Notes under the pieces: model-generated | Told to the model about the DNA's origin: nothing | The model's input: only the letters and a program-made list of their open reading frames with translations | Database searches by the model: none | Position numbers and translations under genes: made by a program | Part shown: positions 4,439 through 23,707 of the stretch, piece by piece | How the letters are laid out: each line of letters begins with the position of its first letter | Numbering within the stretch: the first letter of the stretch is position 1 | Virus record (IMG/VR): IMGVR_UViG_3300047392_000199 | Location: 7,164 to 71,163 of that record | Strand: one strand, 5' to 3' | DNA length: 64,000 nt | From: a virus | Lineage: Duplodnaviria; Caudoviricetes

Positions 4439-4445
4439 GAATATT

Positions 4446-5726: not shown

Positions 5727-5727
5727 A

Positions 5728-8690: not shown

Positions 8691-8725
8691 TCTGATATAT
8701 AGAGTATAAAAATAAGAATTTAAGA

Positions 8726-10069
8726 ATGAATTTTGACGATTTTTTACAATCACTTAACGAATCTGAAGCAGTAAATGAAGCTGGAATTGTCCTAAAAAGA
8801 CAATATACTGAAGCTCATCCTGCTAAAACTGCATCTAAAACTGCAGTTATTCGTAATAAAGTTATTGAAGCCATCAAAGATGGTAAATTAACTAAAGAAG
8901 AATTCAACCTAATTTTAACTAAAGTTTCTGAAGATCAGAAGAGATGGTTAAAAAGAAATAACCACTTCTTTAATCTTTCTGAAGATGGTGTTACATTGTC
9001 AAAAGCAGGACTTAAAATCTATAATGAGCTTACAAAAGAAAATAAAATACAAAATAAACCTAGATTTGAAATGAAAAGATTAGTAGAATCATTCTCAGAA
9101 TTTGTTGAGAATAATAAATTAAATGAAGCATTTGCATCTTCAAAGCTTGCAAGTCTTTTGACTGGAGGCGCAAAAATGCCAAAGGATCTTCCAGGTGCAT
9201 TCTATAGTATGTCACAATTAGCACTTGATAAAATTCAAGATATTGATATTATTGAAATGGATCCAGAAACTGCTAAAAAAGAAAAAAGAGCTAACGCTGT
9301 ATATTTTTATTTTACAACAAATGAAAAAGAGAATCCATACACTCAACAAGATTGGGGTACAAGAACAATTCCAGCAAACACTCTATTAGCTATTACTAAT
9401 GGTCAAAATGAATGGATGAATGCTGAATGGTCAAGCAGATATGGTAGATCATCAAGCAAAACTTTAAAAGTAACTAAAAGAGATGATTCTGCTGGTATTT
9501 CAAAATCTTCTGCAAACTCTAGTTATGGTTCTAAAATCTCAAGCTTAAAACAAGTTGTTGAACTTGCTGATAGAGCATATTGTTTAGATTTAGATATTCT
9601 TAGAGCAAGATATTCTACAAGAACTTTAAAAGATGAAAGATACGCTGCTAAAAAAGGAGCTATCGCATTCCAAACTGATAAAGATTTTAAAGCAGAAAAC
9701 TTAAAGAGATACAATGAAATTTTAGCTACTAAAGCAGCCGCATTACCATTAGATTCTCTAGTTGCAAATGCAATTGATACAATCGCTGGTCAAATCAAAG
9801 ATGGTTTAGCTAAAGGTTTAAAAGGAAGATACGATGAACTTATTGTTGGTTTAGATCCAAAAGGAAGAGAAGTTAAAATGAATGATGCTGCAAATCTAAT
9901 GAGAAATATCTTAGATGAATATTCTAGATACGTTGGAGATGCTGCTCAACAAGAAAAAGAAGTAGCTGCAGGTTACGGTGGTTCTTACTACGAAGGTAGC
10001 ATGAAACAACGCGCTAAAAATCTTCAAGATTACATGAAGAAAATTGACAACTTAAACTATGCTTGGTAA
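8726..10069 (+). CDS. putative head-internal protein
   Basis: GATATATA late promoter at 8694; N-terminal MNFDDFLQSLNE and internal MKRLVESFSEFVE peptides. Confidence 0.5.
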   Translation: MNFDDFLQSLNESEAVNEAGIVLKRQYTEAHPAKTASKTAVIRNKVIEAIKDGKLTKEEFNLILTKVSEDQKRWLKRNNHFFNLSEDGVTLSKAGLKIYNELTKENKIQNKPRFEMKRLVESFSEFVENNKLNEAFASSKLASLLTGGAKMPKDLPGAFYSMSQLALDKIQDIDIIEMDPETAKKEKRANAVYFYFTTNEKENPYTQQDWGTRTIPANTLLAITNGQNEWMNAEWSSRYGRSSSKTLKVTKRDDSAGISKSSANSSYGSKISSLKQVVELADRAYCLDLDILRARYSTRTLKDERYAAKKGAIAFQTDKDFKAENLKRYNEILATKAAALPLDSLVANAIDTIAGQIKDGLAKGLKGRYDELIVGLDPKGREVKMNDAANLMRNILDEYSRYVGDAAQQEKEVAAGYGGSYYEGSMKQRAKNLQDYMKKIDNLNYAW

Positions 10070-10073
10070 TAAT

Positions 10074-10619
10074 ATGAAACATGTACAACTATACGAACAA
10101 TTCGTAACTGAAAAAGCATACCAATTGACTGGAATTTACGGTGCAAAAGGTATTATTGGAAAAGTTCTATTTGCTTTTAAGAAAGAAATCGAACGAATTA
10201 AATACGAAGGAGATGCTGACTCAACTTTAGCAGAACTTAATGACGTTTGGACCAAATGGGCTGATAAAGACGGCGCAAAAATCATCGAACAGGAAGTAAT
10301 GAGAGTTGTTAATAACAAAGAAGCTATCGTTTATATAGTTGCAACTTTATCTAAAGCTCAATGGATTGCAGATGTAGTTAATAGATTAAATACACCGACT
10401 GGTACAGAACTTTTTGTTTCTTTAAACCATGATTTTGTGATTAACGTTGGTTTTGCAGATGATGTTGATGGAAATAAATTCTCTAGAAAACTTGATGGTA
10501 TGACAAATACTGCAATTCCAGTAGATATAACTGAAATCGTTGGATCTTTTGATTCTGCAATAGGTTATAATAACGTTGAAATCAGAAAGAACATCTTTTT
10601 ATCAATAGATGCAAAATAA
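10074..10619 (+). CDS. putative head-internal protein
   Basis: Starts MKHVQLYEQFVTE, like the T4 capsid-targeting sequence MKTYQEFIAE. ATG 10074 preferred over 10059. Confidence 0.55.
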   Translation: MKHVQLYEQFVTEKAYQLTGIYGAKGIIGKVLFAFKKEIERIKYEGDADSTLAELNDVWTKWADKDGAKIIEQEVMRVVNNKEAIVYIVATLSKAQWIADVVNRLNTPTGTELFVSLNHDFVINVGFADDVDGNKFSRKLDGMTNTAIPVDITEIVGSFDSAIGYNNVEIRKNIFLSIDAK

Positions 10620-10627
10620 TTTATAAG

Positions 10628-11095
10628 ATGCCAGCAACAAGCAAATCACAACAAAAACTAATGGGAGTAGCATATGCCGTAAAAGCAGGACATATGCTAC
10701 TTTCTGATGTTTCTGCAGAATATCAAGACAAAGTAAAAGATTTGACACTTTCAATGACTTTAAAACAGCTTAAAGATTTTGCATCAACTCCACATGAAGG
10801 ACTTCCTGATACAGTTGATGAATCTAGTTTAGGATTTGCAACAAATACTGGTGGACCACAAAGTACTTTTATGCCAGGTGCTGGAATGGGAGCTATTAAA
10901 CTTCCAAATATGGGAACCGGAGAAATCGGTTCTGGTGATGTTCCAAAAGGAGCAGGTTGGGCAGAAGACGAATATGAAGAAGAGAAAAAGAAAAAGAAGA
11001 GAAGAGAAAAACTACAAAAGAATACTGAAAAACCAGTAAAAACCTTTGAACAGTTTATTTTCGAAAAACTTAATCCATCTTTAAAGGACAAATAA
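10628..11095 (+). CDS. DUF3008-like protein
   Basis: MPATSKSQQKLMG...LKDFASTPHEGLP matches the DUF3008 pattern as recalled; C-terminal KTFEQFIFE. Confidence 0.6.
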   Translation: MPATSKSQQKLMGVAYAVKAGHMLLSDVSAEYQDKVKDLTLSMTLKQLKDFASTPHEGLPDTVDESSLGFATNTGGPQSTFMPGAGMGAIKLPNMGTGEIGSGDVPKGAGWAEDEYEEEKKKKKRREKLQKNTEKPVKTFEQFIFEKLNPSLKDK

Positions 11096-11362
11096 ATGCT
11101 AAACATTATTTTACTAGGAGGAGAAAAAGATAAGAATTGGTCAGAAGCAGCAGTTGAAAAAATTATAAATTCAATTAACTCTTGCCAATCTTTAAAACAA
11201 CTAATGACATGCAGAGCATTAGTTAACAATTACCTATTTGCTGCAATCATAGCAGGAAACGAGGCAGATGATGATAATCTACGATTAGTCTCGTCTCTAT
11301 TACACTTCTTAGTTAAGAGTAAAGAGAATCAACTTATTAAGGAAATGGATCTTATTTCCTAA
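11096..11362 (+). CDS. hypothetical protein
   Basis: ORF abutting the previous stop. Confidence 0.5.
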   Translation: MLNIILLGGEKDKNWSEAAVEKIINSINSCQSLKQLMTCRALVNNYLFAAIIAGNEADDDNLRLVSSLLHFLVKSKENQLIKEMDLIS

Positions 11363-11397
11363 AATATTTCACTAAATATTTTTTTATGTCATGGAAA

Positions 11398-11414
11398 TTG
11401 TTTATATTTACATA
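11398..11414 (+). promoter_or_regulatory. early-type promoter TTGTTTATATTTACATA
   Basis: Four near-identical intergenic copies (11398, 43251, 60059, 63612); resembles the Bacteroidota -7 element TAnnTTTG. Confidence 0.7.
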
Positions 11415-11435
11415 TAATATTTAAACAATCTCAAC

Positions 11436-11666
11436 ATGATAAAATCAGCAAAAGACAAAAAGAAAGGTCCAATCGAAATCGATCTTAATGGACCAGAAGG
11501 AAACGCATTCTACTTAATGGGAATGGCAATGAACTTTGCTAAACAACTAGGTTGGTCTCAAGAACAAAAGTCAAAACTTAGAGTAGAACTGACATTTTCA
11601 GACTACGAAAACCTAATTAACATCTTCGATAAACATTTCGGCGAGTTTGTAATTTTATATCGATAA
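11436..11666 (+). CDS. small phage protein of unknown function
   Basis: IDLNGPEGNAFYLMG motif seen in small phage proteins; follows an early promoter. Confidence 0.65.
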   Translation: MIKSAKDKKKGPIEIDLNGPEGNAFYLMGMAMNFAKQLGWSQEQKSKLRVELTFSDYENLINIFDKHFGEFVILYR

Positions 11667-11671
11667 TTTCG

Positions 11672-11697
11672 AAACTTTTTTAAATTTACGTATATAA
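11672..11697 (+). promoter_or_regulatory. AAAC-N17-TATAA promoter heading the modification cluster
   Basis: One of 9 intergenic copies with exact 17-nt spacing. Confidence 0.7.
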
Positions 11698-11716
11698 GTA
11701 CTAAACATATCGAGCT

Positions 11717-12010
11717 ATGAGTATTTTAGAAGAAGCAGACAAAATCGTTAATCACAGATCAGAAGAAGCAGACCGTAATTATGGTCCTTTCTCAGAAGGT
11801 ATGGATCGTGCAGCAATGATTTTTCAAGGAATGACTGGTATTCCAGTAACTGGAGAACACATGTTTAAAGCATTAGTTGCTTTGAAATTCTCTAGAGAAT
11901 CTTATAACCATAAGAAAGACAATTTGCTTGATGCAGTTGCCTATATCCAAGGATTAGAGAATTACCTTAATGAGATTGAAGAATCTCGTCCAATCAAATC
12001 AAATGACTAG
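11717..12010 (+). CDS. DUF6378-like (all-alpha nucleotide pyrophosphohydrolase-related) protein
   Basis: ILEEADKIVN..R...YGPFSE ... ALKFSRE...KDNLLDAVAY. Confidence 0.6.
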   Translation: MSILEEADKIVNHRSEEADRNYGPFSEGMDRAAMIFQGMTGIPVTGEHMFKALVALKFSRESYNHKKDNLLDAVAYIQGLENYLNEIEESRPIKSND

Positions 12011-13052
12011 TATTTACGAAATTAAAGACAAGTTAGCTGGCAAAAAGATTGCAATTGATGATGTTGTAACAACTTACAGCTCAAAAAAAGAATCACACAA
12101 ATCTGCGTGGGCATATTTACTTATGTCTCAATTAAAAAGTCTAGGATTAGATGTTACTGTTTTGACAAAAGACAGTAACATTCATGATTTCGACGTTTGG
12201 ATGGTAGCCTTACCAATGGAATTCCAAGGTAGTTACAATCTTTTTGGCGGTGCAGGAGATGAACCAGCTGCTAGAATCCAGAGATTTATTGATTTTAAAG
12301 GAGATGTGTATTGTCTTAATAGACAAATGCCAGATGTTGGCGCATTTGCACAATCTCGTATGAATTCTTGTACAGACAATTGGAAATCATTAGACGTTGC
12401 AATCCTGTCATCAAGGTCAAACAATGTCGAGTCAATTGATTTAACCCTTAACTCGGAAATCTTTGTACTCGGTGATAGCCATTCAGTCTCTGCTTACGTT
12501 CCAGGAGCAAACATTTCCAGAAATGATGGTAAAACATTATTTGGAGTTATTAAAGAAGGAATGCAGAATTATATTCCTGCTGGAACAAAACACCTAATTA
12601 CATATTTTGGTAACATTGATGTTAGACACCATTTGTGCCGCCAACCAGATCCAATTGCAGCAACTGAATCTCTAGTTAAAAACTATGTTGAACACTTAAA
12701 AAGTCTAGGCATGGAAAAGATCAGTGTTATGCAATTACTACCAATCGACCACGAAGAGAGAAGAATTCCAAAGACTGGATTCTACAAAGGAACACCATTT
12801 TATGGAAATTTAGAAAAAAGATTGGAAATTTGTCGAATTTTTAACAATAAGCTGAGTATATATCTAAGTGAGGCCGGATATGAATTTATCCAATGGCCAA
12901 GCGAATGGTACAAGCTAAGCCCAAAAGACTATGCGGACATTTATATGGAGAAACCAGGATCGGTGCACCTTTCACGAAATTATTATCAATATGATTTCGA
13001 AACTGGCCAAAAGAATCCAGCATTAAAACCAAAAGTCACGAGTTTATTTTGA
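12003..13052 (+). CDS. BGT-like N-terminal domain fused to SGNH/GDSL hydrolase-acyltransferase domain
   Basis: SGNH blocks LGDSHS, FGNIDVR, SVHL. N-terminus parallels the BGT homolog at 14720 (NLFGG vs NFFGG). ATG 12003 preferred over 11970. Confidence 0.55.
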   Translation: MTSIYEIKDKLAGKKIAIDDVVTTYSSKKESHKSAWAYLLMSQLKSLGLDVTVLTKDSNIHDFDVWMVALPMEFQGSYNLFGGAGDEPAARIQRFIDFKGDVYCLNRQMPDVGAFAQSRMNSCTDNWKSLDVAILSSRSNNVESIDLTLNSEIFVLGDSHSVSAYVPGANISRNDGKTLFGVIKEGMQNYIPAGTKHLITYFGNIDVRHHLCRQPDPIAATESLVKNYVEHLKSLGMEKISVMQLLPIDHEERRIPKTGFYKGTPFYGNLEKRLEICRIFNNKLSIYLSEAGYEFIQWPSEWYKLSPKDYADIYMEKPGSVHLSRNYYQYDFETGQKNPALKPKVTSLF

Positions 13053-13077
13053 AACCTTTTATAAATTACAAGTATAA
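13052..13077 (+). promoter_or_regulatory. AAAC-N17-TATAA promoter
   Basis: Exact motif upstream of ino1. Confidence 0.7.
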
Positions 13078-13100
13078 CTTAAAACAAATTACTAAAAATT

Positions 13101-14279
13101 ATGAGTAAAATTAAAGTTGCAATCATTGGTACAGGAAACTGTGCTAAGTCTCTCGTAGAAGGAGTACAATTCTACACAGAAAATCAAGCAAATATTGATG
13201 GTATGATGCGTAGCGATATCGGTGGATATGGCGCAAAAGACATTGAATTTGTTTGTGCATTTGATATTGATGAGCGTAAAGTAAATCAACCATTAGGTGT
13301 TGCATTGAAACAACGTCCAAATTCTGCATGGGATATCGTTTCAACTATCGATTCTACTGCTCCAGTTTATGAAGCTCCAGTTATTGATGGTTATGCATTG
13401 TTAATGGACGCGTATCCAGAATCAAATCGTTTCTTGGTTTCTGAAGAGTTGAGAAATTCAACTGAGACAAATCGTACTGAATGGACCGATAAAAAGGACA
13501 GACAGTGGAAAGACAAAATTATTGGTCTTTTAAAACAACACGAAGTTGAAGTATTGATTAACTACTTACCAGTAGGTTCTCAAGCAGCAACAGAATTTTG
13601 GGCAGAAATCTGTCTAGAAACTGGAATTTCTTTCGTAAACTGTATTCCAGTATTTATTGCATCTGATCCAGCATGGGAGAAACGTTTTATTGACGCAGGT
13701 ATTCCATTGATTGGTGATGATATGCGTTCTCAATTTGGTGCATCTATCTTGTCTCAAATGTTACAAGAACTTGCATTCGAAAGAGGTCACGTAGTAAGAG
13801 CACACATTCAACGTAATGTTGGTGGTAACACTGACTTCTTGAATATGGAAGACAAAACGCGTTTGAAATCTAAAAAGATTTCTAAAGAGAACGTAATCCG
13901 CGCTCAGAATGATATTCGTGGAATATCAACAGAAGGTTCATTCTTACATGCAGGTCCTTCAGAGTACATCTCATTCTATGGAGATAACAAAGTTGCTAAC
14001 TTCCGTTTAGAACTTGAAGGATTTGGTGGAGCACCAGTTATTTTTGATGCTCAACTATCTGTACAAGATAGTCCAAACTCTGCAGGAGTTGTAATTGACG
14101 CTCTACGTTATGTTAGAGTTGCAAGAGAAATGGGAATTGTTGGTGCTTTAAGAGGACCATCAGCATTTACCCAAAAGACACCACCTCAACAAATGATGTT
14201 TGTTGATGCTGTTCAAGAATGCGAAGCTTTAGCAAATCGTAAACTTACTAAAGTTACGGAGAAACAAGTTAAAGCTTAA
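13101..14279 (+). CDS. ino1: myo-inositol-1(3)-phosphate synthase
   Basis: GTGNCAKSLVEG Rossmann start, NYLPVGS, GDDMRSQFGA, NVGGNTDFLNM, SKKISK, DSPNSAG, AFTQKTPP; actinobacterial/archaeal-type MIPS. Confidence 0.93.
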   Translation: MSKIKVAIIGTGNCAKSLVEGVQFYTENQANIDGMMRSDIGGYGAKDIEFVCAFDIDERKVNQPLGVALKQRPNSAWDIVSTIDSTAPVYEAPVIDGYALLMDAYPESNRFLVSEELRNSTETNRTEWTDKKDRQWKDKIIGLLKQHEVEVLINYLPVGSQAATEFWAEICLETGISFVNCIPVFIASDPAWEKRFIDAGIPLIGDDMRSQFGASILSQMLQELAFERGHVVRAHIQRNVGGNTDFLNMEDKTRLKSKKISKENVIRAQNDIRGISTEGSFLHAGPSEYISFYGDNKVANFRLELEGFGGAPVIFDAQLSVQDSPNSAGVVIDALRYVRVAREMGIVGALRGPSAFTQKTPPQQMMFVDAVQECEALANRKLTKVTEKQVKA

Positions 14280-14289
14280 TTAATCCAAC

Positions 14290-14321
14290 AAGATGGAGAG
14301 TTTTGCTCTCCATCTTTTTTT
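14290..14321 (+). terminator. intrinsic terminator
   Basis: AAGATGGAGAG-TTTTG-CTCTCCATCTT followed by a T-run. Confidence 0.75.
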
Positions 14322-14332
14322 AATTTAGAAAG

Positions 14333-14710
14333 ATGAAAAATCAAGAAATATTCGCATACGATTTTGATGGTGTAGTTTCTTTAGGAATTAGACCAAGATT
14401 CAGTGATGATGTTATTATCACAGGTAGATGTCAAGAAGAGGCGCCATACGTTTTTGAAAAATTAGCGGAAATGGGAATCTCTACAAATGTTTACTTTAAT
14501 CAAATGACTTTACAAGAAAGAGGAAATCATACAGTTGAAGCTCGTGTTTTCTCTGGTCGTCATAAAGCAAGAACTATTTATAACCTTAAAGAACAAGGTA
14601 TTGATGTAGTTCGCTTCTTTGATGATGACGAAGTTCAAATTGCGGTTATTAAACAATGGCACCCTGATTTGGATATTGTCCATGTAGTATCAACATTAGT
14701 AGAAAAATAA
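14333..14710 (+). CDS. small capless HAD-family phosphatase
   Basis: Motif I YDFDGV, motif II ITGR, motif III K (HKA), motif IV FFDDD. Confidence 0.8.
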   Translation: MKNQEIFAYDFDGVVSLGIRPRFSDDVIITGRCQEEAPYVFEKLAEMGISTNVYFNQMTLQERGNHTVEARVFSGRHKARTIYNLKEQGIDVVRFFDDDEVQIAVIKQWHPDLDIVHVVSTLVEK

Positions 14711-14719
14711 AATCAATCA

Positions 14720-15742
14720 ATGAAATTCGGAATATTAAATATCTATATTAATACTTCATGTAATACAAATCGAGCAAATGGATTAGAAATCTATTATCTT
14801 CGAAAGGCATTACTTGAGGCAGGACATGAAGTGTCTATTATTGGACATAAAAACTTAAGAAATGCCGAACAAGAATATTATGTAGATGCTAATGAAGCCG
14901 AATGGGAAACTTATGATGGTATATTCATTCAATTAGCAAAAGATAATTTCTTTGGCGGTGGATTAAAACCACATACAGTTGCAATCGTTGAAGGTATTGC
15001 AAAAGCAAAGAATAAAATCTACAATCTTGCAACTGATCCAATGTTTCCACCAATTAATCCTGCCAGATCTTTAGCAAGATTTAATTTATGTCAAGATTAT
15101 GTTGACGTATGGGATGACCTAATTGAAGATTCGATTCAAATCTTTCCAGGAAAAGACATTAAGAAATTTAATGGATGGAAGAAGGGAAATGTAATGAACT
15201 TCAACCTATTCGGATATATTTTCAAGAATCTATTTACTGAAAGAGAATTGGCCAATCCAACTCTATTTCACGGAGAAGATACTAAAAGATGGGATGTTAT
15301 CTATTTTGGTAGAAACAGAAAAAGGTATCGTGAAAGTATGTTGCAAAAATATATTCCAAAAGATACTAGAAATTTATTGGTTGGATATAAAAGTAAAAAT
15401 GTACCATCAACCCAAATCAATCCAGTTTCGCATGACGAGATGATGTATCTTGTTAATCAATCTAAAGTTAGTCTAATTATCGGAGATGAAGAGCATTTAG
15501 ATAATGTTGTTACATATCGTTTTTATGAAACTCTAGCTTCTAATTCATTAGCAGCAATTCAAATTGAATACGATCCAAATAAAAAGCTTATTCAGGATCC
15601 AGTACTTAGAAAGGTATTATATGTTAAAAATGCCGAAGATGTTAAAGTACTAACTGAATTATATTCAAAAGATTTAATTGATCGTCAAAAACGAGAATTA
15701 GCCAGAATATTTAGTGAAATTAACAAACCTATAGAATTATAA
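14720..15742 (+). CDS. T4 DNA beta-glucosyltransferase (BGT)-like GT-B glycosyltransferase
   Basis: E-IYYL, NFFGGG, IYNLATDP, DVIYFG..R..R, LIIGDE, TYRFYETLAS follow the T4 BGT pattern; 340 aa. Confidence 0.75.
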   Translation: MKFGILNIYINTSCNTNRANGLEIYYLRKALLEAGHEVSIIGHKNLRNAEQEYYVDANEAEWETYDGIFIQLAKDNFFGGGLKPHTVAIVEGIAKAKNKIYNLATDPMFPPINPARSLARFNLCQDYVDVWDDLIEDSIQIFPGKDIKKFNGWKKGNVMNFNLFGYIFKNLFTERELANPTLFHGEDTKRWDVIYFGRNRKRYRESMLQKYIPKDTRNLLVGYKSKNVPSTQINPVSHDEMMYLVNQSKVSLIIGDEEHLDNVVTYRFYETLASNSLAAIQIEYDPNKKLIQDPVLRKVLYVKNAEDVKVLTELYSKDLIDRQKRELARIFSEINKPIEL

Positions 15743-15743
15743 T

Positions 15744-16412
15744 ATGCTTACGAAAAGTCAAAGAGAACTAAAAGCAAACTACATAAAATATCTTAATGCA
15801 ACCGAAAGGATTGACAAAGATATGATTAAAGATTGCATTATCCATTACATTAAACCTGAAGTAGATTATACTGATAAAGTTTGTCTTGATTTAGGTGGAA
15901 ATGTTGGTGGATTTACTAAATTAGCAATAGATCATGGTGCAAAACAAGTTATCACAGTAGAATGTGATGTAAGAAATTACACTAAGTTATCTCAAAGTTT
16001 TGCAGAAGAACCAAAAGCAAAGATTATTCATGCTGCGGTTTCTGGAAGCAATGACAAAACTATTAAAATCTATAAAGGAAATAGTGGTGGTTCTCATTGT
16101 TCTACGTCAATCATGAAAAGAAGTACTTTCCATGACTATGATGAGGTACAAAATTTACATATTCAAGAATTGTTAGATATGTACAAACCAGATATTATCA
16201 AAATTGATGTTGAAGGTGCCGAGTATCAAATCTTAGAATTCATTGAAGCTTACTATCCTGAAGTAATTTTTGTTGAATTACACATGGGAAAAGTAAAAGA
16301 ACATGCCAAACCAGCTATTGAAAGATTATCAAATTTATACCCAATCAATGAGGTAAATAGTTTTATTGTCTTTAAAGAAATTGGCGGATATGATTGTTGG
16401 TTTAAAAAATAA
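15744..16412 (+). CDS. FkbM-family SAM-dependent methyltransferase
   Basis: LDLGGNVGGF, VEC, HAAV, IKIDVEGAEY, FVELH. Confidence 0.85.
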   Translation: MLTKSQRELKANYIKYLNATERIDKDMIKDCIIHYIKPEVDYTDKVCLDLGGNVGGFTKLAIDHGAKQVITVECDVRNYTKLSQSFAEEPKAKIIHAAVSGSNDKTIKIYKGNSGGSHCSTSIMKRSTFHDYDEVQNLHIQELLDMYKPDIIKIDVEGAEYQILEFIEAYYPEVIFVELHMGKVKEHAKPAIERLSNLYPINEVNSFIVFKEIGGYDCWFKK

Positions 16413-16421
16413 AATAATAAA

Positions 16422-17471
16422 ATGAGTAATATAATTGAAAGCGTAAATATGGATGTCGTGAAAGACATCGGTCGTTTCTTTAATAAAGTAAACGAAAGAG
16501 CCCTTTATAATATGGGAGTGCTGGATAGTTATGATAGCGGTGGAGACGATGCTCTTGGAGAAACTGTAGAGTATTTCCATCCACAAATTACTCTAGACGA
16601 TCGTATGAGATATATCATGGAGAATATTGTATATGCTCCAATCTCAATGGACAATATTATTTGCAATACAATTATTTCCCACTTTTATGGAGCTCGTGGA
16701 ATTCACCAAGTTCTAACAAGAGATCCAAATCCAAAGACAGCATTAATTGATTTTGAAAGACTTTTAGTTGATCGAGATTATGAGAATAAAATTCGTAAGA
16801 ATTTAGAAGATGCAGTTTCTTTAGGTTTACCAATCTATGGAAGTACGGAATTACGTACTAGTCTTTTTGGAGCAGCAAATAATTATGTTGCTCAGTTGAG
16901 AAATCAACCAAGAGATGCTCATAAAATTAACATTCTTTTATGGGTAGCTTCTTTTATACCTCGAGGTATCACAGGAAGAATGGCCCAGGTTAAATCTTTA
17001 AACGAGATGTATGATATTATCTCTTCGCTTGAAGGAGTAGGACAGTACTACGGTTACCACTGTTCAACGTCTAACTCGGTAAATCCAAGAATTCCAATCA
17101 ATCACGATGAAAGATTTTGCGTACCAGGTCCTGGAGCAAGATTTACATTAGACCTAATGTTTGGAGAAGGTTGCAATATTCCTTATGGTGATAGAGTTAT
17201 TTGGTTCCGTGAAAACTATAAAGACCTTATTGGAGATATTCCATTACATGAATCAACTCATAATATTTATGTTGATGGTAAGAAGATTTTCCAAGAAGAA
17301 CAAAACGATCTTAAAACTTATGGATGCGAGGTTGGCCTTTGTCAGTATGGCGTTTATTACCGATTAAGAAACAATCCACATTTAATTAGTCGTCGAAAGG
17401 TTGCAAGAACTGATGATTCAGTTATGGAATACTTTTTTAATAATAATTTTGAACAAAACTCGCTTTTCTAA
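16422..17471 (+). CDS. aGPT-Pplase1 / 5-hmdU DNA kinase helical-domain-like DNA base hypermodification protein
   Basis: LDDRMRYIMENI, HhH-like LEGVGQYYGYH, ERFCVPGPGARFTL, CEVGLCQYGVYYR in the order typical of this family. Confidence 0.62.
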   Translation: MSNIIESVNMDVVKDIGRFFNKVNERALYNMGVLDSYDSGGDDALGETVEYFHPQITLDDRMRYIMENIVYAPISMDNIICNTIISHFYGARGIHQVLTRDPNPKTALIDFERLLVDRDYENKIRKNLEDAVSLGLPIYGSTELRTSLFGAANNYVAQLRNQPRDAHKINILLWVASFIPRGITGRMAQVKSLNEMYDIISSLEGVGQYYGYHCSTSNSVNPRIPINHDERFCVPGPGARFTLDLMFGEGCNIPYGDRVIWFRENYKDLIGDIPLHESTHNIYVDGKKIFQEEQNDLKTYGCEVGLCQYGVYYRLRNNPHLISRRKVARTDDSVMEYFFNNNFEQNSLF

Positions 17472-17476
17472 TATAA
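17451..17476 (+). promoter_or_regulatory. GAAC-N17-TATAA promoter
   Basis: One-mismatch copy of the motif. Confidence 0.55.
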
Positions 17477-17494
17477 TAACCTATAGATGTTATT

Positions 17495-17917
17495 ATGAAA
17501 GCAACGAGTATCAAAAACCTTTTCCTAGACGATTTTAGACAACCACATGATTGCATGAGCTACATGCCGTACCGAATTGGTACACATTCAGCAATGTATA
17601 CTCAACAAGAATGGTCAGTTGTTAAAAACTATGACGAATTTACCGAATGGATTACTTTAAATGGTCTTCCTGAAATGGTATCATTCGATCATGATTTAGC
17701 AGATGAACATTACAGCCCAGCAATGTGCGGAGATGGAGCTGACTATCCAACTGAATTTGATGAAAAAACAGGTTTAGACTGTGCTAAATGGTTAGTTAAT
17801 TATTGTATTGACAATAAGTTTAAATTTCCATGTTTTGAAGTACATTCAATGAATCCAGTCGGCTCAGAAAGAATTAGAAATTATATTCAAGATTACATCA
17901 AATTTAGTAAACAATAA
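17495..17917 (+). CDS. cyclic-phosphate processing receiver-domain protein
   Basis: LFLDDFR, SFDHDL, TGLDCAKWL, VHSMNPVG. Confidence 0.8.
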   Translation: MKATSIKNLFLDDFRQPHDCMSYMPYRIGTHSAMYTQQEWSVVKNYDEFTEWITLNGLPEMVSFDHDLADEHYSPAMCGDGADYPTEFDEKTGLDCAKWLVNYCIDNKFKFPCFEVHSMNPVGSERIRNYIQDYIKFSKQ

Positions 17918-17940
17918 TAAATAAAACTATAGAATAGTAT

Positions 17941-18408
17941 ATGGCAAATATTGATAATGAATGTAAAGATTTAGAAGTAAATGACTTCTATGATAAATCT
18001 ACCACGCATCTGGCGGATATTATGAATCACCAAAAAGAAATGCAAGAAAAAACTTATGGATTTGATTTTGACAATATGTCAATCAGAGACATTATGAATT
18101 TCTGGCATGTTAATACACACGCAGTAGTTGATGAAATTCATGAAATGACTGATGCTCTTGGTGGTATTAAAGATGGAGATGGTAATGCAGTTTGGAAATA
18201 TTGGAAAACAGCTCATACTAAATATGAGAACATGAAAATTTCCGATCTTTCAGAAAATGATCGCAAAGAACTTTATATGGAATGGGTAGATATTCTACAC
18301 TTCTTTATAAATTATGCTGCTTCAATCGGATTAGACGCCAAAACAGCATACAATTACTACTTTGCAAAAGCAGAAGAGAATAAGCAACGCCAAAAACGAG
18401 GATATTAA
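17941..18408 (+). CDS. dCTP/dUTP pyrophosphatase (T4 gp56-like)
   Basis: DEIHEM, AVWKYWK, EWVDILHF, ENKQRQKRGY match gp56. Confidence 0.85.
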   Translation: MANIDNECKDLEVNDFYDKSTTHLADIMNHQKEMQEKTYGFDFDNMSIRDIMNFWHVNTHAVVDEIHEMTDALGGIKDGDGNAVWKYWKTAHTKYENMKISDLSENDRKELYMEWVDILHFFINYAASIGLDAKTAYNYYFAKAEENKQRQKRGY

Positions 18409-19817
18409 TGTTATTAGACATCGAACAAAGAGAAAAAGAGGTTATGGTTTCCTTTTATAATAAAGAAGGAGAAGTAGCTTTTAAAAGATACCCAATCAAT
18501 CAATACCAAAACTGGTTTGTTTGTGATGCTAAAGATCGTGAAGCAAGTACTCAATTTAAAAATTGGGATAATCGTCCCGTTAAATTAGGTACATCTAGAC
18601 AATTTAATAAGTTTTCTTTGGTATATTTTATGGATAATCTTCCTGAAAAGGATAAAGAAGAGATTTATGCATACAATATGCCAAAGACTTATTTTGTCGA
18701 TATTGAGACTGAAATTGTTGATGGTTTCCCTAAAGCAGAAGAAGCTAAATCTAGAATCTTAACTTTCTCAATTATTACTCCAAATAAAAAGACAATTGTT
18801 CTTGGATTAGAAGACCTTTCACCTGAACAAATTAGTCAAATTGAAAAAGATACTAATGAGTATTTTAAACAATTAGATTCTGATTGGACTTTTCAATATA
18901 TTAAGTTTAAATCTGAATACGATATGGTTTATACGTTCTTGTATAAATTCATGCCTAAATTCCCAATGATGTCAGGTTGGAACTTTATCAACTATGACTG
19001 GCAATATATTGTTAATCGTTGTAAAAGATTACAAATTGATATTGCAGATTCAGCACTAACAAAAGCAGTAGATTCTACAGATTCAAGACCACTTCACATG
19101 GGTATTCTTGATTACATGCAATTATATGACAAATATGATAAATCTGTAAAAGTTAAAGAATCAAATGCTCTTGAATATGTTGCAGGTCAAGTTCTAGGTT
19201 TTGGTAAAATCAAGTACAATGGCGGTTTACAAGACCTTTATCGTGATGATTTTAAAAAGTATGTTTATTATAACGTAGTCGATAGCGTGTTAGTATATTA
19301 CATTGACCAGAAATTAAAATCAATGGAAGTACTTCTAACACTTGCAAATATTACAAGAATGCCTCTTTATAAAGCAGCATCCCCGGTTGCCGTAACTGAA
19401 GCATTAATTGCCCGTAAAATGGCAGAATCTGGTTTTAGAATTGGAACCGAACAAAGATCTGACGGTAAAAAAGATACACAATATGCAGGTGCATTCGTAA
19501 AAGAACCTAAAGTCGGTTTCTACCACGGAGTAAGTGCATTTGACTTTGCATCTCTATATCCATCTATTATGCGACAGTTCAATATCTCACCAGATGCATT
19601 TGTTGAAAAAGTTCCACTTTCAAAGATTGAAGAACGCAGAGCAGATAAAAATGTTATTGTTTGTGAAAATGGAGTTGTTTATCGTAATGAAGATTCAATG
19701 TTAAAAATGATTCTTACAGATTTATATTCAAAAAGAAAGCAATATAAGTCTACATCTTACGATCTATATACAAAAGCAGAACACTACAAAAAGTTATTAG
19801 AAAAGAAAAAAGATTAA
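18408..19817 (+). CDS. family B DNA polymerase, N-terminal subunit (gp43A-like)
   Basis: ExoI DIETE, ExoII GWN...YD, ExoIII YNVVD, motif A DFASLYPS; ends in the fingers helix and lacks motifs B and C. Confidence 0.9.
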   Translation: MLLDIEQREKEVMVSFYNKEGEVAFKRYPINQYQNWFVCDAKDREASTQFKNWDNRPVKLGTSRQFNKFSLVYFMDNLPEKDKEEIYAYNMPKTYFVDIETEIVDGFPKAEEAKSRILTFSIITPNKKTIVLGLEDLSPEQISQIEKDTNEYFKQLDSDWTFQYIKFKSEYDMVYTFLYKFMPKFPMMSGWNFINYDWQYIVNRCKRLQIDIADSALTKAVDSTDSRPLHMGILDYMQLYDKYDKSVKVKESNALEYVAGQVLGFGKIKYNGGLQDLYRDDFKKYVYYNVVDSVLVYYIDQKLKSMEVLLTLANITRMPLYKAASPVAVTEALIARKMAESGFRIGTEQRSDGKKDTQYAGAFVKEPKVGFYHGVSAFDFASLYPSIMRQFNISPDAFVEKVPLSKIEERRADKNVIVCENGVVYRNEDSMLKMILTDLYSKRKQYKSTSYDLYTKAEHYKKLLEKKKD

Positions 19818-19935: not shown

Positions 19936-20952
19936 ATGGAAAATTCAAAATCATCATTATTTGTTGAACGTGTCGAGTACAAACCTTTTGAATATCCAAT
20001 GTACTATACCGAAGGATGGCTTCCGGTAATGCAAGCACATTGGTTACACACAGAGATTTCAATGCAAGGCGATCTTAAAGATTGGAATGAGCATCTAACT
20101 CCTTCTGAAAAGAACCTTGTTGGAAATATATTATTAGGTTTTGCTCAAACAGAATGCGCAGTTTCAGATTACTGGACTAATATGGTAACTAAATGGTTCC
20201 CAAAACACGAAATTAGACAAATGGCGATGGCTTTTGGTGCAAACGAAACAGTACATGCTGTAGCATACTCATACTTAAATGAGACCTTAGGATTAGAAGA
20301 TTTTGCAGCATTTCTTAAAGAACCTGCAACTTCTCAGAAATTTGAATTCTTAGTTGAAACTAATAATGATTATACTCATTTAGATTTACAACATAATGCA
20401 GATGCTAGAAAAGACGTTGCCCGATCACTTGCAATCTTCTCTGCTTTCGCTGAAGGAGTTTCACTATATTCATCATTTGCAGTTTTATATTCATTCCAGA
20501 TGCGTAACCTACTTAAAGGTATTGGTCAGCAAATGAAATGGTCAGTTAGAGACGAATCACTACACTCTAAAATGGGTTGTCAACTTTTCCGTCACATATG
20601 TGAAGAATATCCTGAATTAAAAGAAGCAGTTCAATCTCAAGTTGAAGAGGCTGCAAAACTTATGGTTGAAATGGAATTCCAATTTATCAATAAAATGTTT
20701 GAAATGGGAGACCTTGAAAACATGCAAGCTGATGACCTTAAAGAATTTATTAAGAAAAGAGCAAATGAAAAACTAAACGAATTAGGATATGAAAGCATTT
20801 TTCATTATAGTGAAGCAATGGCTAGTCAATTAGACTGGTTCTATCACTTAACAGGAGGACATACACATACTGACTTTTTTGCAATTCGACCAACTGATTA
20901 CTCTAAAGCAGGAGAAGACGAGAATTGGGACGAGGACGACATGTTTTCATAA
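19936..20952 (+). CDS. nrdB: ribonucleotide reductase class Ia beta subunit
   Basis: ETVHAVAYSY, AEGVSLYSSF, RDESLH, TDFFAIRPTDYSK. Confidence 0.95.
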   Translation: MENSKSSLFVERVEYKPFEYPMYYTEGWLPVMQAHWLHTEISMQGDLKDWNEHLTPSEKNLVGNILLGFAQTECAVSDYWTNMVTKWFPKHEIRQMAMAFGANETVHAVAYSYLNETLGLEDFAAFLKEPATSQKFEFLVETNNDYTHLDLQHNADARKDVARSLAIFSAFAEGVSLYSSFAVLYSFQMRNLLKGIGQQMKWSVRDESLHSKMGCQLFRHICEEYPELKEAVQSQVEEAAKLMVEMEFQFINKMFEMGDLENMQADDLKEFIKKRANEKLNELGYESIFHYSEAMASQLDWFYHLTGGHTHTDFFAIRPTDYSKAGEDENWDEDDMFS

Positions 20953-20983
20953 GAATAAATACAATACAAATTAAATATTTTAG

Positions 20984-22801
20984 ATGGATCAAATTAATCA
21001 CGGAGAACAACAAGGCTGGGAACTAGGAGTAGATTTCCCAGTTTGGGGTAATACAGAAATTTATGTTAAAACAATATCAAAAGGATATTTGTTAAAAGGT
21101 GAAACACCTAAAGATGCTTATTGGAGAGTTTCAACAAGCGTTGCAAAAAGATTAGGAAAGCCTGAATTGGCAAGCAAATTCTTCGATTATATTTGGAAAG
21201 GTTGGTTAAACTTGGCTACTCCAGTTTTATCAAACACGGGTACTGAAAGAGGATTACCAATTTCATGTTTTGGTATTGATGTTGCAGATTCTATTGCCGA
21301 TATTGGTGGTAAGAATTTAGAAATGATGTTACTTGCAAAACATGGTGGTGGAGTTGGAATTGGTGTAAATCAAATTCGTCCAGCAGGAGCTAATATTTCT
21401 CAAAATGGTACATCTGATGGTGTAGTTCCTTTCATTAAAATTTACGATAGTTCAGTTCTAGCAACCAATCAAGGGTCAGTTAGAAGAGGAGCAGCATCAG
21501 TAAATATTGATATTGAACATGGCGATTTTTGGGAATGGTTAGAAATTAGAGAACCTAAAGGAGATGTTAATCGTCAATCTTTAAATATGCACCAATGTGT
21601 TGTTGTTTCAGATAGTTTCATGGCTAAATTAGAAGCTGGAGACAAAGAAGCAAGAAAACGTTGGGCTGCAGTTCTTAGAAAAAGAAAATCAACTGGAGAG
21701 CCTTATGTAATGTACAAAGGAAATGTTAACAGAGCAAATCCTGAAGCTTACAAACAAAATGGTTTAAAAGTTTATATGACAAATATTTGTTCAGAGATTA
21801 CTTTACACACTGATGAGAATCACTCATTTGTTTGTTGTTTAAGTTCATTGAACTTGGCTAAATATGATGAGTGGAAAAATACTGACTTAGTATATACATC
21901 AACTCAATTTTTAGATGGAGTTCTTTCTGAATTTATTAGTCGTGCAAAATACATGAGAGGTTTTGAAAACTCAGTTCGTTCTGCTGAAAAAGGTAGAGCA
22001 TTAGGACTTGGAGTTTTAGGATGGCACACATATTTACAAGATCGTAATATTCCATTTGATTCCCTAATGGCTCAATTTGAAACTAGAAAGATTTTTAGTC
22101 AAATCAAAATTGAATCTGAAAGAGCAAGTAGAGATATGGCGACAGAATATGGAGAACCTTTATGGTGTGTTGGTACTGGAATGAGAAACACACATTTACG
22201 TGCAATTGCTCCTACAGTTTCTAACTCTAAATTATCTGGTAATGTTTCTGCAGGTATTGAACCTTGGGCAGCAAACGTATTTACAGAACAAACAGCCAAA
22301 GGTACTTTCATTAGAAAGAATCCAACATTAGAAAAAGCTTTATCATTTGTTAAAAAGAATAATAAAGAAACATGGGATCAGATTTTAGCCGATGGCGGAT
22401 CAGTTCAAGGTTTAGATTGGATGGATGAATACTTTGTACGAATTGGAGAGAAATTAGAAGAGAAAGCAGGAAGACCTATTCATATTGAGAAATTAAATGA
22501 ATTAGAAAATGTTCATAAAGATGAATTCATTCCAATGAAAGATGCTTATAGAACATTTAAAGAAATTAATCAAATGGAATTAGTTAAACAAGCTGGACTT
22601 CGACAACAATATGTCGACCAAGCAGTTTCATTAAACTTAGCATTTCCAAATGAGGCCGAACCTAAATTTATCAATCAAGTGCATTTAGAAGCTTATAATC
22701 AAGGAATCAAAACACTTTATTATATGAGAACTGAATCAGTACTTAGAGGAGATATAGCACAAAGAGCAATGGATCCTGATTGTTTAAGTTGTGATGGATA
22801 A
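20984..22801 (+). CDS. nrdA: ribonucleotide reductase class Ia alpha subunit (no ATP-cone)
   Basis: LPISCF, TNICSEI, VCCLSS, IAPTVS, KTLYY, C-terminal CLSCDG. Confidence 0.95.
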   Translation: MDQINHGEQQGWELGVDFPVWGNTEIYVKTISKGYLLKGETPKDAYWRVSTSVAKRLGKPELASKFFDYIWKGWLNLATPVLSNTGTERGLPISCFGIDVADSIADIGGKNLEMMLLAKHGGGVGIGVNQIRPAGANISQNGTSDGVVPFIKIYDSSVLATNQGSVRRGAASVNIDIEHGDFWEWLEIREPKGDVNRQSLNMHQCVVVSDSFMAKLEAGDKEARKRWAAVLRKRKSTGEPYVMYKGNVNRANPEAYKQNGLKVYMTNICSEITLHTDENHSFVCCLSSLNLAKYDEWKNTDLVYTSTQFLDGVLSEFISRAKYMRGFENSVRSAEKGRALGLGVLGWHTYLQDRNIPFDSLMAQFETRKIFSQIKIESERASRDMATEYGEPLWCVGTGMRNTHLRAIAPTVSNSKLSGNVSAGIEPWAANVFTEQTAKGTFIRKNPTLEKALSFVKKNNKETWDQILADGGSVQGLDWMDEYFVRIGEKLEEKAGRPIHIEKLNELENVHKDEFIPMKDAYRTFKEINQMELVKQAGLRQQYVDQAVSLNLAFPNEAEPKFINQVHLEAYNQGIKTLYYMRTESVLRGDIAQRAMDPDCLSCDG

Positions 22802-22960: not shown

Positions 22961-23707
22961 ATGAAATTACACATTGACAAAGTAGACCAAAACAATTTTA
23001 TTGGTTTCGTAAACAGATTGAAACTTATTGACTCTTTTATCTATTTTAAGATTAAAGGCGATCAAGTAGTTTCTTCAGCTTACTTGCCACAGCGAGATGC
23101 TGTGAAGCACAACGCTCTTCCATTAGGAGAGATTTTCGTAACATCAGGCGAAACACCTGAAAAAGAATTAAAAGTTGCATTTTTTGATGCTGCTAAATTA
23201 ATCGAAGCATTTAAACAATTCGACTACCAAGGTATCCATGGTGAAATCGAATTTATTGAAAATGATGAAGATTGCGTAGCAACAAGCTTTAAAATCTTTA
23301 ATGATGATTTAGAAATCACATTATCTTGTTCAGAACCTTCTTTAGGTTACAAAGATTTAACAGAATCTCAATTACAAGGAATCTTCAATACTGAAGGATC
23401 TGATTTCGTATTCGAATTAAGTAATGTAGAAGCTGGAAAAATCAAATCTTTATTCAACTTAGATAAAGATGAAACATTTAGTATCTCATCTTCTGATGAT
23501 GGTGTTAAAATTAGTGGTAAATCATACAGCAAATTAGTAAGTACTGAATTTGAAGGTGATAAAGCAAGTGTAACAGTTTATAAAAAGTATTTGAGTTTAC
23601 TTGACAAAGAGGACTACAAAGCTTACGTATTCGGTAATCGCGTAGTATTACGCTCTACTGAATCTGCTACTTTATTAACTATTGCAACATGCCAATCCGC
23701 TGATTAA
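22961..23707 (+). CDS. sliding clamp (gp45-like)
   Basis: 248 aa acidic two-domain pattern directly upstream of the polymerase C-terminal subunit; inferred from size and context. Confidence 0.6.
   Translation: MKLHIDKVDQNNFIGFVNRLKLIDSFIYFKIKGDQVVSSAYLPQRDAVKHNALPLGEIFVTSGETPEKELKVAFFDAAKLIEAFKQFDYQGIHGEIEFIENDEDCVATSFKIFNDDLEITLSCSEPSLGYKDLTESQLQGIFNTEGSDFVFELSNVEAGKIKSLFNLDKDETFSISSSDDGVKISGKSYSKLVSTEFEGDKASVTVYKKYLSLLDKEDYKAYVFGNRVVLRSTESATLLTIATCQSAD

Follow-up and report, generated by a model that had tools for sequence, protein, structure and literature searches.

In the viral record IMGVR_UViG_3300047392_000199 of IMG/VR we analyzed a stretch of 64,000 nucleotides (the window; bases 7164–71163 of a record of 71,163 bases with a CheckV completeness of ~23%), and found that its region 11717–18408 is best explained as a system for post-replicative hypermodification of DNA bases. 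The core of this system consists of four genes, encoding a homologue of myo-inositol-phosphate synthase (MIPS), a small HAD-like protein and two proteins named here after their open reading frames (ORFs), ORF12 and ORF7, with an FkbM methyltransferase as a frequent fifth member. We lean towards the view that a cyclitol derived from MIPS ends covalently on a hydroxymethyl-pyrimidine of the phage DNA. An original prediction made from this DNA had proposed that inositol, produced by MIPS and a phosphatase, is put on a hydroxymethyl-pyrimidine by an enzyme of the aGPT-Pplase type. This idea is strongly supported by a recurring and permuted cassette, by modules that replace a part of it, by the neighbours of MIPS in the phages Cr30 and RP13 and by a hydroxymethylase-like gene in the nearest relative. 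The target is likely 5-hydroxymethylcytosine (5hmC), and as no kinase accompanies the genes the mechanism known for aGPT-Pplase enzymes does not simply apply here.

To follow these genes through other genomes we compared ~240 viral loci and cultured phages in three sets. For the clade of the window the MIPS protein was searched against IMG/VR and the best 80 of 122 relatives (81–98% identical) were taken, giving 43 loci large enough for the entire cluster. The distant set was collected with a MIPS alignment headed by the protein from Ralstonia phage RP13 and comprises the best 80 of at least 425 MIPS-encoding viral stretches (58–77% identical to RP13) and one added locus, thus 81 loci, which were annotated with local hidden Markov models (HMMs). 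The third set was picked with an alignment of the ORF12 family (best 80 of 221 IMG/VR relatives) and contains 76 loci with a match to the ORF12 HMM. In the clade of the window DUF6378, ORF7, the HAD-like gene and ORF12 are found beside MIPS in every locus (43/43 each), followed by FkbM (39), the MazG-like gene (39), the N-terminal half of the family-B DNA polymerase (PolB-N, 37), cREC (9) and the β-glucosyltransferase (BGT) homologue (4). The distant loci carry the HAD-like gene in 74, ORF12 in 50, ORF7 in 45 and FkbM in 20 of 81 cases, and the window's DUF6378, BGT, cREC and MazG-like proteins in none. Where the distant loci extend for at least 3.5 kb on each side (28 loci), ORF7 and ORF12 are either both present (20) or both missing (8) and never occur alone. 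The reverse test gave the same picture, as MIPS, the HAD-like gene and ORF7 were detected in 38 of 38 ORF12-picked loci that extend for 4 kb or more to either side. This grouping around MIPS is far beyond chance. The gene order varies by sub-clade (MIPS-HAD-ORF12-ORF7, ORF7-MIPS-HAD-ORF12, MIPS-HAD-ORF12-FkbM-ORF7 and ORF7-MIPS-HAD-FkbM-ORF12), and FkbM is placed inside the cassette, also in the TET/JBP type described below. The pathway of nine genes that had been proposed originally is therefore too wide: DUF6378, BGT, cREC and the MazG-like gene are lineage-specific neighbours and not part of the conserved core, BGT being accessory and confined to a few close relatives. Likewise, of the two partners that MIPS was expected to keep in other phages, the aGPT-Pplase-type ORF12 is tightly linked to it and BGT is not. 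Some cassettes contain additional genes. A gene similar to C5 cytosine DNA methylases (395–409 amino acids (aa), PF00145, 56 bits) directly follows ORF7 in 24 of the 81 distant loci, a 139-aa cytidylyltransferase follows ORF12 in five loci, and an epimerase/dehydratase of the short-chain dehydrogenase/reductase (SDR) type precedes ORF7 in seven. It is possible that the latter two provide extra tailoring or activation steps.

Further evidence comes from loci in which only a part of the core is present. In eight distant loci without ORF7 and ORF12 the MIPS-HAD pair is surrounded by other base-modification genes, namely a TET/JBP dioxygenase (82 bits) and FkbM. In seven of them MIPS is immediately preceded by an ADDT-like gene (30.9 bits, cut-off 26.2), and in six HAD is immediately followed by a gene for a Ploopntkinase3 protein (34.7 bits); a GT1 glycosyltransferase is found in one and a gene of the thymidylate synthase (TS) family in another. 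Caulobacter phage Cr30 encodes an ADDT protein (179 bits), followed by a glycosyltransferase-like gene and then MIPS, and in RP13 MIPS-HAD is flanked, at a distance of 3 kb on either side, by an HMUDK_hel protein (161.8 bits) upstream and an HMUD2 kinase (51 bits) downstream. Three further loci resemble Stenotrophomonas phage Mendera and have the genes of GTP cyclohydrolase I and of a QueC-like protein on the two sides of MIPS-HAD. In Mendera itself the order is FolE, MIPS, HAD, QueC-like and QueE-like (8098–13624 of the locus), and no TS-family gene is found; it is possible that the cyclitol is carried by a 7-deazaguanine scaffold in loci of this type. As a tblastn search with 20 window proteins against the loci of Mendera, Cr30 and RP13 matched nothing but MIPS, the HAD-like protein and, in Mendera, PolB-N, the three phages represent independent genomic contexts. 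The anti-defence genes Acb3, Tad6 and Acb1 were also seen within a few kb of MIPS (Cr30 locus 15855–16655, RP13 locus 12302–13221).

The opposite case, ORF7 and ORF12 without MIPS, is found in the Aeromonas phages 44RR2.8t, 31, UP87 and others. Here both proteins are fused to a single protein of 795 aa, and a sodium:solute symporter (TIGR00813, 272.5 bits, cut-off 184; below the cut-off of the YidK-type model PRK10484) is encoded directly upstream, where the other phages have MIPS-HAD. For the phages 44RR, 31 and 25 the genes 42, 56, alc and denB have been described as present and a glucosyltransferase as absent, and another modification of Hm-dCMP was left open (Petrov et al. 2010, PMC2993671, in the part of the paper used here). 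Aeromonas phage 25 carries a stand-alone ORF7-like gene (233 bits with our own HMM, locus region 2773–6044). The genes ahead of it encode a UDP-galactopyranose mutase, matched to 3hdq with an E of 4.5e-77, and a protein of 358 aa without a match in the PDB; ORF12, MIPS and HAD are missing from this locus. This suggests a galactofuranose-type modification of 5hmC in phage 25. ORF7 is thus tied to genes for the supply of a sugar or polyol in three different settings.

ORF12 is presumed to be a base-flipping transferase of the HMUDK_hel/aGPT-Pplase superfamily; this superfamily and 5-HMUDK were reportedly defined by Iyer et al. in 2013. The AlphaFold2 (AF2) model of ORF12 (pLDDT 91) has its best PDB match in the 5-PmdU glycinyltransferase gp46 of phage PaMx11 (8z2n; VIA Z 10.9, root-mean-square deviation 3.8, 226 residues), and gp46 was also ranked first by Foldseek (E 0.2, probability 0.92). 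In an unbiased alignment against 48,161 chains the first 23 rows are occupied exclusively by base-flipping enzymes with a helix-hairpin-helix (HhH) fold (Z 9.3–5.1), the next row having a Z of only 3.8; QNG1 (9.3) and gp46 (9.2) lead this list, with Ogg, Nth, AlkA and MutY in the ranks below. The residues E303 and C307 in the motif EVGLCQ are invariant in 33 homologues and are kept in the Aeromonas fusions and in ORF120 of RP13. An essential cysteine with a neighbouring glutamate is also described for the amino-acid:DNA transferases (AADTs), which use an exocyclic-methylene intermediate that is attacked by an amine (M6) or by the hydroxyl group of serine (ViI) (Lee et al. 2021, PMC8989533, in part), and Cys247 is named for the 288-residue gp46 (PMC11472151, in part). 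A homologue of ORF12 with 54% identity was also found in Crocinitomix algicola (Bacteroidota), on a contig of 176.7 kb, where it bears the NCBI name 'nucleotide kinase domain-containing protein'. It could possibly belong to a prophage or give a clue to the host of this low-GC freshwater phage group.

The second protein, ORF7, consists of an N-terminal alpha/beta domain, a C-terminal domain with SGNH/GDSL fold and a tail ending in ...TSLF. Since its homologues have 349 aa, its true start is likely at 12003. Its sequence gave no hit in Pfam or the PDB, and an Atlas search with residues 1–148 gave no usable match. In the AF2 model (pLDDT 90.5, alignment of 35 sequences) residues 145–338 resemble GDSL/SGNH esterases and O-acetyltransferases (Foldseek E ~2e-5, VIA Z 11–12), PatB and OatA being among the matches. 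The blocks of the SGNH family are represented by GDSH (S159), RNDGxT (G176), GNID (N204) and SVHL (H322), with these residues invariant in 35 homologues. From its place in the cassettes ORF7 seems to occupy the slot that is filled by a P-loop kinase in known systems.

Both proteins end like the DNA polymerase. In T4 and RB69 the polymerase docks on the gp45 clamp with its C-terminal tail. In the window the end ...TSLF is shared by ORF7 and the C-terminal polymerase half (PolB-C), ORF12 ends in ...NSLF, and an LF end is found in six of the 61 window ORFs, an exonuclease among them. In the RP13-like clade the polymerase tail is different (...SLEDFF(G) or ...TLDEFF) and the tails of ORF7 (...TLEEFF or ...LESFFE) and ORF12 (...TLTEFF or ...LEEFFT) differ in the same way. 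Within the distant loci the last six residues contain [LMIF]F in 38 of 45 ORF7 and 26 of 50 ORF12 proteins, in none of 74 HAD-like and 80 MIPS proteins, and in 144 of 963 ORFs with at least 100 aa. The fusion protein of 44RR ends in ...SLDGLFAI and its polymerase in ...NLFDMFDI. The shared tail is probably a sliding-clamp motif, and as the tails of ORF7 and ORF12 co-vary with the polymerase tail between clades we infer that both proteins act at the replication fork by riding the clamp. A candidate for the docking partner is encoded at 22961–23707. This protein gave no match in Pfam, PHROG or the PDB, and an Atlas feature search linked it (0.94) to a 'Sliding clamp family protein' cluster, in which 16% of the members carry gp45-slide_C; we regard it as a probable gp45-like clamp, as a lead only. 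It is located together with both ribonucleotide reductase subunits (19936–22801) between the two halves of the polymerase, which are ~3.9 kb apart. The gp43 of Aeromonas phage 44RR2.8t is also split (43 and 43B). Polymerase-like tails are present on three more ORFs of the window (135–374, 27971–28414 and 43292–44512, ending in ...NSLF, ...NRLF and ...IKLF), one of them exonuclease-like (phrog_107), and these may be further clients of the clamp.

The supply of the group to be attached would be the task of MIPS and the HAD-like protein. MIPS aligns with Ino1 from M. tuberculosis (1gr0, E 5.3e-79) over residues 3–99 and 140–366, leaving residues 100–139 as an insertion of ~40 residues, and judged from its sequence it belongs to a diverged viral clade. 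The motifs GxGNCA, NVGGNxDFLN, SKKISK and DSPNSAGVxIDA, which we take to be the glycine motif for dinucleotide binding and the catalytic Lys/Asp/Asn motifs, are kept in this alignment and their columns are invariant in six divergent phage MIPS. As a member of this family the protein is predicted to convert glucose-6-phosphate to inositol phosphate. The HAD-like protein shows the four HAD motifs in the pattern DxDGV, TGR, K and DD, with D10, D12, G13, V14, T30, G31, R32, K78, D98 and D99 being invariant in 15 sequences from four phage lineages. Homologues adjoin MIPS also in Mendera, Cr30 and RP13, and the protein is presumed to be an inositol-phosphate phosphatase.

The base to be modified is likely 5hmC in the phage of the window and 5-hydroxymethyluracil (5hmU) in RP13. 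A diverged TS-family protein is encoded in five of five large relatives. In the nearest relative, whose cluster proteins are 97–99% identical to those of the window, it best matches the dCMP hydroxymethylase of T4 (E 2.3e-16) and has the catalytic Cys as well as an Asp that aligns with D179 of T4. The position equivalent to D179 presumably determines the choice between cytosine and uracil. The same Asp is found in gp42 of 44RR and in a 228-aa TS-like gene that is located within ~5 kb of MIPS in 35 of the 81 distant loci, compared with an Asn in the RP13 enzyme and in true ThyA proteins. Because the linked TS-family enzymes carry the cytosine-type Asp, 5hmC is favoured. The BGT homologue also points to 5hmC in DNA, as it can be aligned end to end with T4 BGT (1bgt, E 3.2e-15, residues 1–323 with chain residues 1–322) and is identical at T4 E22, D100, R191, R195, R269 and E272, which we take to be catalytic and UDP-binding positions. 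The MazG-like protein stands in the position of T4 gp56 and is a candidate dCTPase. It reaches 18.8 bits with dUTPase_2 of Pfam, which is under the cut-off of 22.9, and has no match in the PDB.

From the family and fold assignments, the linkage, the fusion and the co-variation of the tails a route can be proposed, in which all catalytic steps, the ether bond and the nature of the cyclitol are predictions. The MazG-like dNTPase and a dCMP-hydroxymethylase-like enzyme encoded elsewhere would allow the split polymerase to build 5hmC into the DNA. MIPS would form inositol phosphate from glucose-6-phosphate and the HAD-like protein would remove the phosphate before or after the transfer. Riding on the sliding clamp by their polymerase-like tails, ORF12 and ORF7 would meet the newly made DNA, where ORF12 would flip the hydroxymethylated base and attack its C6 with the invariant Cys, in analogy to the AADTs. 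Addition of an inositol hydroxyl group to the exocyclic methylene would then, again by analogy, yield an ether-linked 5-(inosityloxymethyl)cytosine. The AADT-type use of free nucleophiles fits a supply line that ends in a dephosphorylation or, in Aeromonas phages, in import. ORF7 in the place of the kinase might activate the hydroxymethyl group as an ester or acylate the product, which is speculative. FkbM could O-methylate the cyclitol, and BGT, in this window and the few relatives that have it, could glucosylate remaining 5hmC or the cyclitol. In its most detailed form, which we put forward as a tentative and rather doubtful proposal, a large group of aquatic and soil T4-like phages with worldwide distribution replaces the sugar on 5hmC with an ether-linked and often O-methylated myo-inositol, needing neither a kinase nor a nucleotide-activated donor and using a clamp-riding Cys transferase with HhH fold together with a BGT-N/SGNH protein, and related cassettes use TET/JBP-made hydroxymethyl bases and possibly 7-deazaguanine.

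Several observations weigh against the attachment of a cyclitol by this route. The three sets of loci overlap in contigs and all derive from T4-like viruses, so that the counts are not independent events. ORF7-like genes without MIPS or ORF12 are present in Aeromonas phage 25 and Tenacibaculum phage PTm5, and ORF7 is therefore not specific for inositol. With the NCBIfam equivalog TIGR03450 the MIPS protein scores 286 bits, under the cut-off of 638, and a paralogous family of MIPS (6k96) makes a five-membered cyclitol phosphate. For the HAD-like protein no significant match was found in Pfam or the PDB, profile search included, and Acid_phosphat_B is matched weakly by two of 15 members (best E 0.011); a capless HAD could also act on a macromolecule instead of free inositol phosphate. 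ORF12 matches HMUDK_hel, the helical domain of the kinase, and not ADDT (PF18724), which gave no hit to it in the Pfam scan. As an hhalign comparison of its alignment with the single AADT sequence of Cr30 gave a probability of 0.2% and a profile search of PDB sequences did not retrieve gp46, the link between ORF12 and the AADTs is structural only, and C307 may correspond to Cys247 of gp46, to judge from their distances to the C-terminus (42 versus 41 residues). The original prediction had seen neither a P-loop kinase nor a hydroxymethylase, and both observations stand. A Walker A motif is absent from every ORF of the region, and there is thus no kinase alongside ORF12. The HMUD2 kinase (PF18747), present in RP13, was found neither in an 87%-complete relative nor in 44RR2.8t, other kinase families lying outside this genome-wide search. 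The known mechanism of the AADTs is therefore not fully available, as it needs a phosphorylated substrate. The own record of 71 kb, of which the completeness is given above, contains no hydroxymethylase or other gene of the TS family, and the search elsewhere that had been proposed gave the dCMP-hydroxymethylase-like gene of the nearest relative and no HMUD2 kinase. In addition, no chemical or experimental datum on any of these phages was found in the literature searched.

These points leave room for other explanations. ORF7 and ORF12 might hypermodify the DNA with another group such as an amino acid, a polyamine or an acyl group, with MIPS and HAD as a separate metabolic pair for osmoprotection, lipids or host takeover in the same early region. 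Relatives within the aGPT-Pplase superfamily do transfer glycine, serine or putrescine (PMC8989533, in part), linkage in a single clade is weak evidence alone given the long syntenic blocks of T4-like genomes, and ORF7-like genes also exist without MIPS. We consider this unlikely, however, as MIPS-HAD stays with ORF7 and ORF12 through several permutations of the gene order and in all roomy ORF12-picked loci, as another set of DNA-base transferases replaces ORF7 and ORF12 beside MIPS-HAD and similar enzymes accompany it in Cr30 and RP13, and as the genes found frequently beside the cassette include no pyridoxal-phosphate (PLP) decarboxylase, no radical-S-adenosylmethionine (radical-SAM) gene and none for amino-acid tailoring. 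To about the same low degree we expect that a cyclitol is indeed attached in a form other than ether-linked free myo-inositol, for example as an inositol phosphate (bound as a phosphodiester or kept phosphorylated), as a different cyclitol from a diverged MIPS or after prior activation, for instance to CDP-inositol. The equivalog score of MIPS and its kinship to the synthase of the five-membered cyclitol phosphate, the capless HAD without family placement and the cytidylyltransferase and SDR genes of some cassettes would fit such a variant. However, MIPS resembles genuine Ino1 (E 5.3e-79 with 1gr0) much more than the synthase of the five-membered ring (E 3.8e-46 with 6k96), its phosphatase-like partner is nearly universal, and the cytidylyltransferase and SDR genes are rare.

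That the cassette acts on RNA or tRNA, on the nucleotide pool or on a glycan of the envelope or virion, or that inositol or its phosphate serves only as a cofactor or anti-defence metabolite, appears very unlikely to us. This reading draws on cREC, on a ligase-like motif read by eye and an NMN-adenylyltransferase-like gene nearby, on Tad6, Acb1 and Acb3 near MIPS in RP13 and Cr30, and on QNG1, a nucleoside hydrolase, which ties as best fold match of ORF12. It is opposed by the polymerase tail on ORF7 and ORF12, which co-varies between clades, by the fold family of ORF12, whose members are DNA base-flipping enzymes, and by the kind of neighbours, namely hydroxymethylase, dCMP deaminase, TET/JBP, dNTPases and polymerase. 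Least probable of all seems a plain T4-style glucosyl-5hmC made by gp56-like, gp42-like and BGT proteins with all remaining genes as passengers. The full-length BGT homologue with its aligned catalytic residues and the dCMP-hydroxymethylase-like gene of the relatives would agree with it; the rarity of BGT in the window clade and its absence from the distant loci, set against the constant four-gene core, do not, and the clamp tails and the AADT-like fold would be left unexplained.

The nine ORFs of the region are co-oriented on the + strand and run into the DNA polymerase gene, exactly as originally described (Table 1). Six of their labels are above the Pfam cut-offs (DUF6378, MIPS, BGT, FkbM, HMUDK_hel and cREC) and the SGNH assignment is borne out by the fold; the gp56 label is weak, the HAD label rests on motifs, and the BGT-N label of ORF7 is also weak, as hhalign of residues 38–125 to the neighbouring BGT-like ORF gave a probability of 20%. 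The cREC protein is probably outside the DNA pathway.

Table 1: Genes of the region 11717–18408 and of the split DNA polymerase, in window positions.
Feature	Position	Strand	Support
DUF6378 protein, 97 aa	11717–12010	+	PF19905, 36 bits (cut-off 27.1)
ORF7, 349 aa, SGNH fusion	12003–13052 (ORF listed from 11970)	+	fold only, no Pfam match
MIPS homologue, 392 aa	13101–14279	+	PF01658 Inos-1-P_synth, 77.8 bits (cut-off 27)
Small capless HAD-like protein, 125 aa	14333–14710	+	four motifs
T4 beta-glucosyltransferase homologue, 340 aa	14720–15742	+	PF09198 T4-Gluco-transf, 30.3 bits (cut-off 27)
FkbM methyltransferase, 222 aa	15744–16412	+	PF05050 Methyltransf_21, 56.3 bits (cut-off 22.7); TIGR01444, 68 bits (cut-off 37.7)
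ORF12, 349 aa	16422–17471	+	PF18723 HMUDK_hel, 46.7 bits (cut-off 25), profile positions 48–275 of 281
cREC_REC protein, 140 aa	17495–17917	+	PF20274, 75.1 bits
MazG-like NTP pyrophosphohydrolase, 155 aa	17941–18408	+	phrog_173, E 1.3e-12; phrog_18650 'dUTPase', E 3.1e-9
Family-B DNA polymerase, N-terminal half	18408–19817	+	PF00136, PF03104; phrog_2062, E 1e-81
Putative gp45-like sliding clamp, 248 aa	22961–23707	+	Atlas feature search 0.94
DNA polymerase, C-terminal half, end ...TSLF	23707–24903	+	PF00136; phrog_1918

Judged by its genes, the source phage is a distant T4-like myovirus of freshwater. PHROG and Pfam matches in the window, which has a G+C content of ~32%, include the T4-like set of UvsW, UvsX, a gp41-like helicase, a gp46/47-like nuclease, gp32 and primase, as well as portal, prohead protease, major capsid protein, terminase, sheath and tube, and a clamp loader. 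Near-identical DNA is present in freshwater metagenomes (20 rows from 17 studies, two of them possibly the source itself), and a megablast search of the region against a phage collection gave no match. Four metatranscriptome contig sets span 28, 28, 30 and 23 of 30 bins of the region, a coverage that is not evidence of transcription. Upstream of the region, the 429-aa protein encoded at 4437–5726 shows a KxDG ligase-like motif, read by eye, and the 617-aa protein encoded at 5728–7581 carries an NMN-adenylyltransferase-like domain at its C-terminus (TIGR00125, 36 bits). In combination with cREC these two may form an RNA-repair or NAD-related set outside the DNA pathway. The cytidylyltransferase-like domain of the 617-aa protein was also considered as a CDP-inositol synthase and rejected, as its matches are NMN adenylyltransferases and it is absent from the distant cassettes. 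The far end of the window (61770–63553) encodes an aminopeptidase of the M42 family (227.9 bits) and a glycosyltransferase of the GT2 type (31.2 bits).

The original prediction knew of no DNA base that contains inositol, and neither an inositol- nor a cyclitol-bearing base was found in the full-text literature searched, with subscription journals and supplements being outside this search. In the parts used of two hypermodification papers (PMC13326640; bioRxiv 10.1101/2023.12.21.572611) the word 'inositol' refers to fold similarity to inositol-related glycosyltransferases. As inositol is isomeric with hexose, such bases could be, or could already have been, misread as 'hexosyl-hmC' by mass alone. 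If the cyclitol is indeed attached, cyclitol ethers would be a new chemical class among natural DNA bases, and the amino-acid:DNA-transferase superfamily would extend to 5hmC and to polyol nucleophiles, with the hydroxymethyl group being activated or used independently of a kinase. It would also provide a first example of base modification by enzymes that are bound to the sliding clamp, and would explain the fate of 5hmC in the Aeromonas phages 44RR and 31, which are positive for gene 42 and negative for a glucosyltransferase. Bound as an ether, the cyclitol would be resistant to glycosidases and, probably, to many modification-dependent nucleases, and would thus bear on arms races between phages and hosts, on the evasion of restriction and CRISPR and on tools for labelling and sequencing of 5hmC. 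The cassette is frequent in freshwater metagenomes and may therefore influence the recovery of such phages in sequencing.

In summary the system is of a known kind, the post-replicative hypermodification of 5-hydroxymethyl-pyrimidines, and differs from described examples in its donor chemistry, the lack of a kinase, the SGNH partner, the probable base and the presumed tethering to the clamp. The closest relatives are the systems with 5-hmdU kinase and AADT (aGPT-Pplase2) of M6, ViI, PaMx11 and PhiW-14 (PMC8989533 and PMC11472151, each in part). These also act after replication on a 5-hydroxymethyl-pyrimidine already in the DNA, with an enzyme of HhH glycosylase-like fold and conserved Cys and Glu, features that are predicted here from genes and model alone. 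They use, as is predicted here too, a free small-molecule nucleophile, a hydroxyl nucleophile being known for gp247 of ViI, and their genes are likewise clustered beside nucleotide-metabolism and polymerase genes. In contrast, the cassette described here has no P-loop kinase and instead an obligate partner in form of the SGNH-fold fusion protein, its transferase matches HMUDK_hel and not ADDT, and its base is likely 5hmC and not 5hmU. The nucleophile would be a cyclitol from MIPS and HAD and not an amino acid or polyamine, tailoring enzymes dependent on PLP, radical-SAM or FAD are missing, and both enzymes bear clamp-type tails. The glucosyl-hmC pathway of T4 (gp42, gp56, gp1 and the alpha- and beta-glucosyltransferases) is shared in so far as the virus is T4-like, relatives encode a hydroxymethylase-like protein with the cytosine-type Asp, a MazG-like dNTPase adjoins the polymerase and the window has a full-length BGT homologue. 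However, BGT is dispensable in most relatives, the supply genes would make a cyclitol, and the conserved enzymes are not Leloir glycosyltransferases and would need no nucleotide sugar. Phage-encoded supply lines are also known for the arabinosyl-5hmC and glycosylated 5-hydroxycytosine pathways of RB69 and Stenotrophomonas phage DLP3, which include, according to a table of the paper, a small HAD-type sugar-phosphate phosphatase but rely on a nucleotide sugar and GT-B glycosyltransferases (PMC13326640, in part), compared with a non-activated cyclitol and a transferase of the AADT/HMUDK_hel type proposed here. Finally, the eight MIPS loci with TET/JBP and transferase genes around MIPS-HAD resemble the published TET/JBP cassettes, which, as far as described in the part of the preprint used here (bioRxiv 10.1101/2023.12.21.572611), append sugars by glycosyltransferases and where inositol is mentioned only with respect to a structural similarity to MshA.

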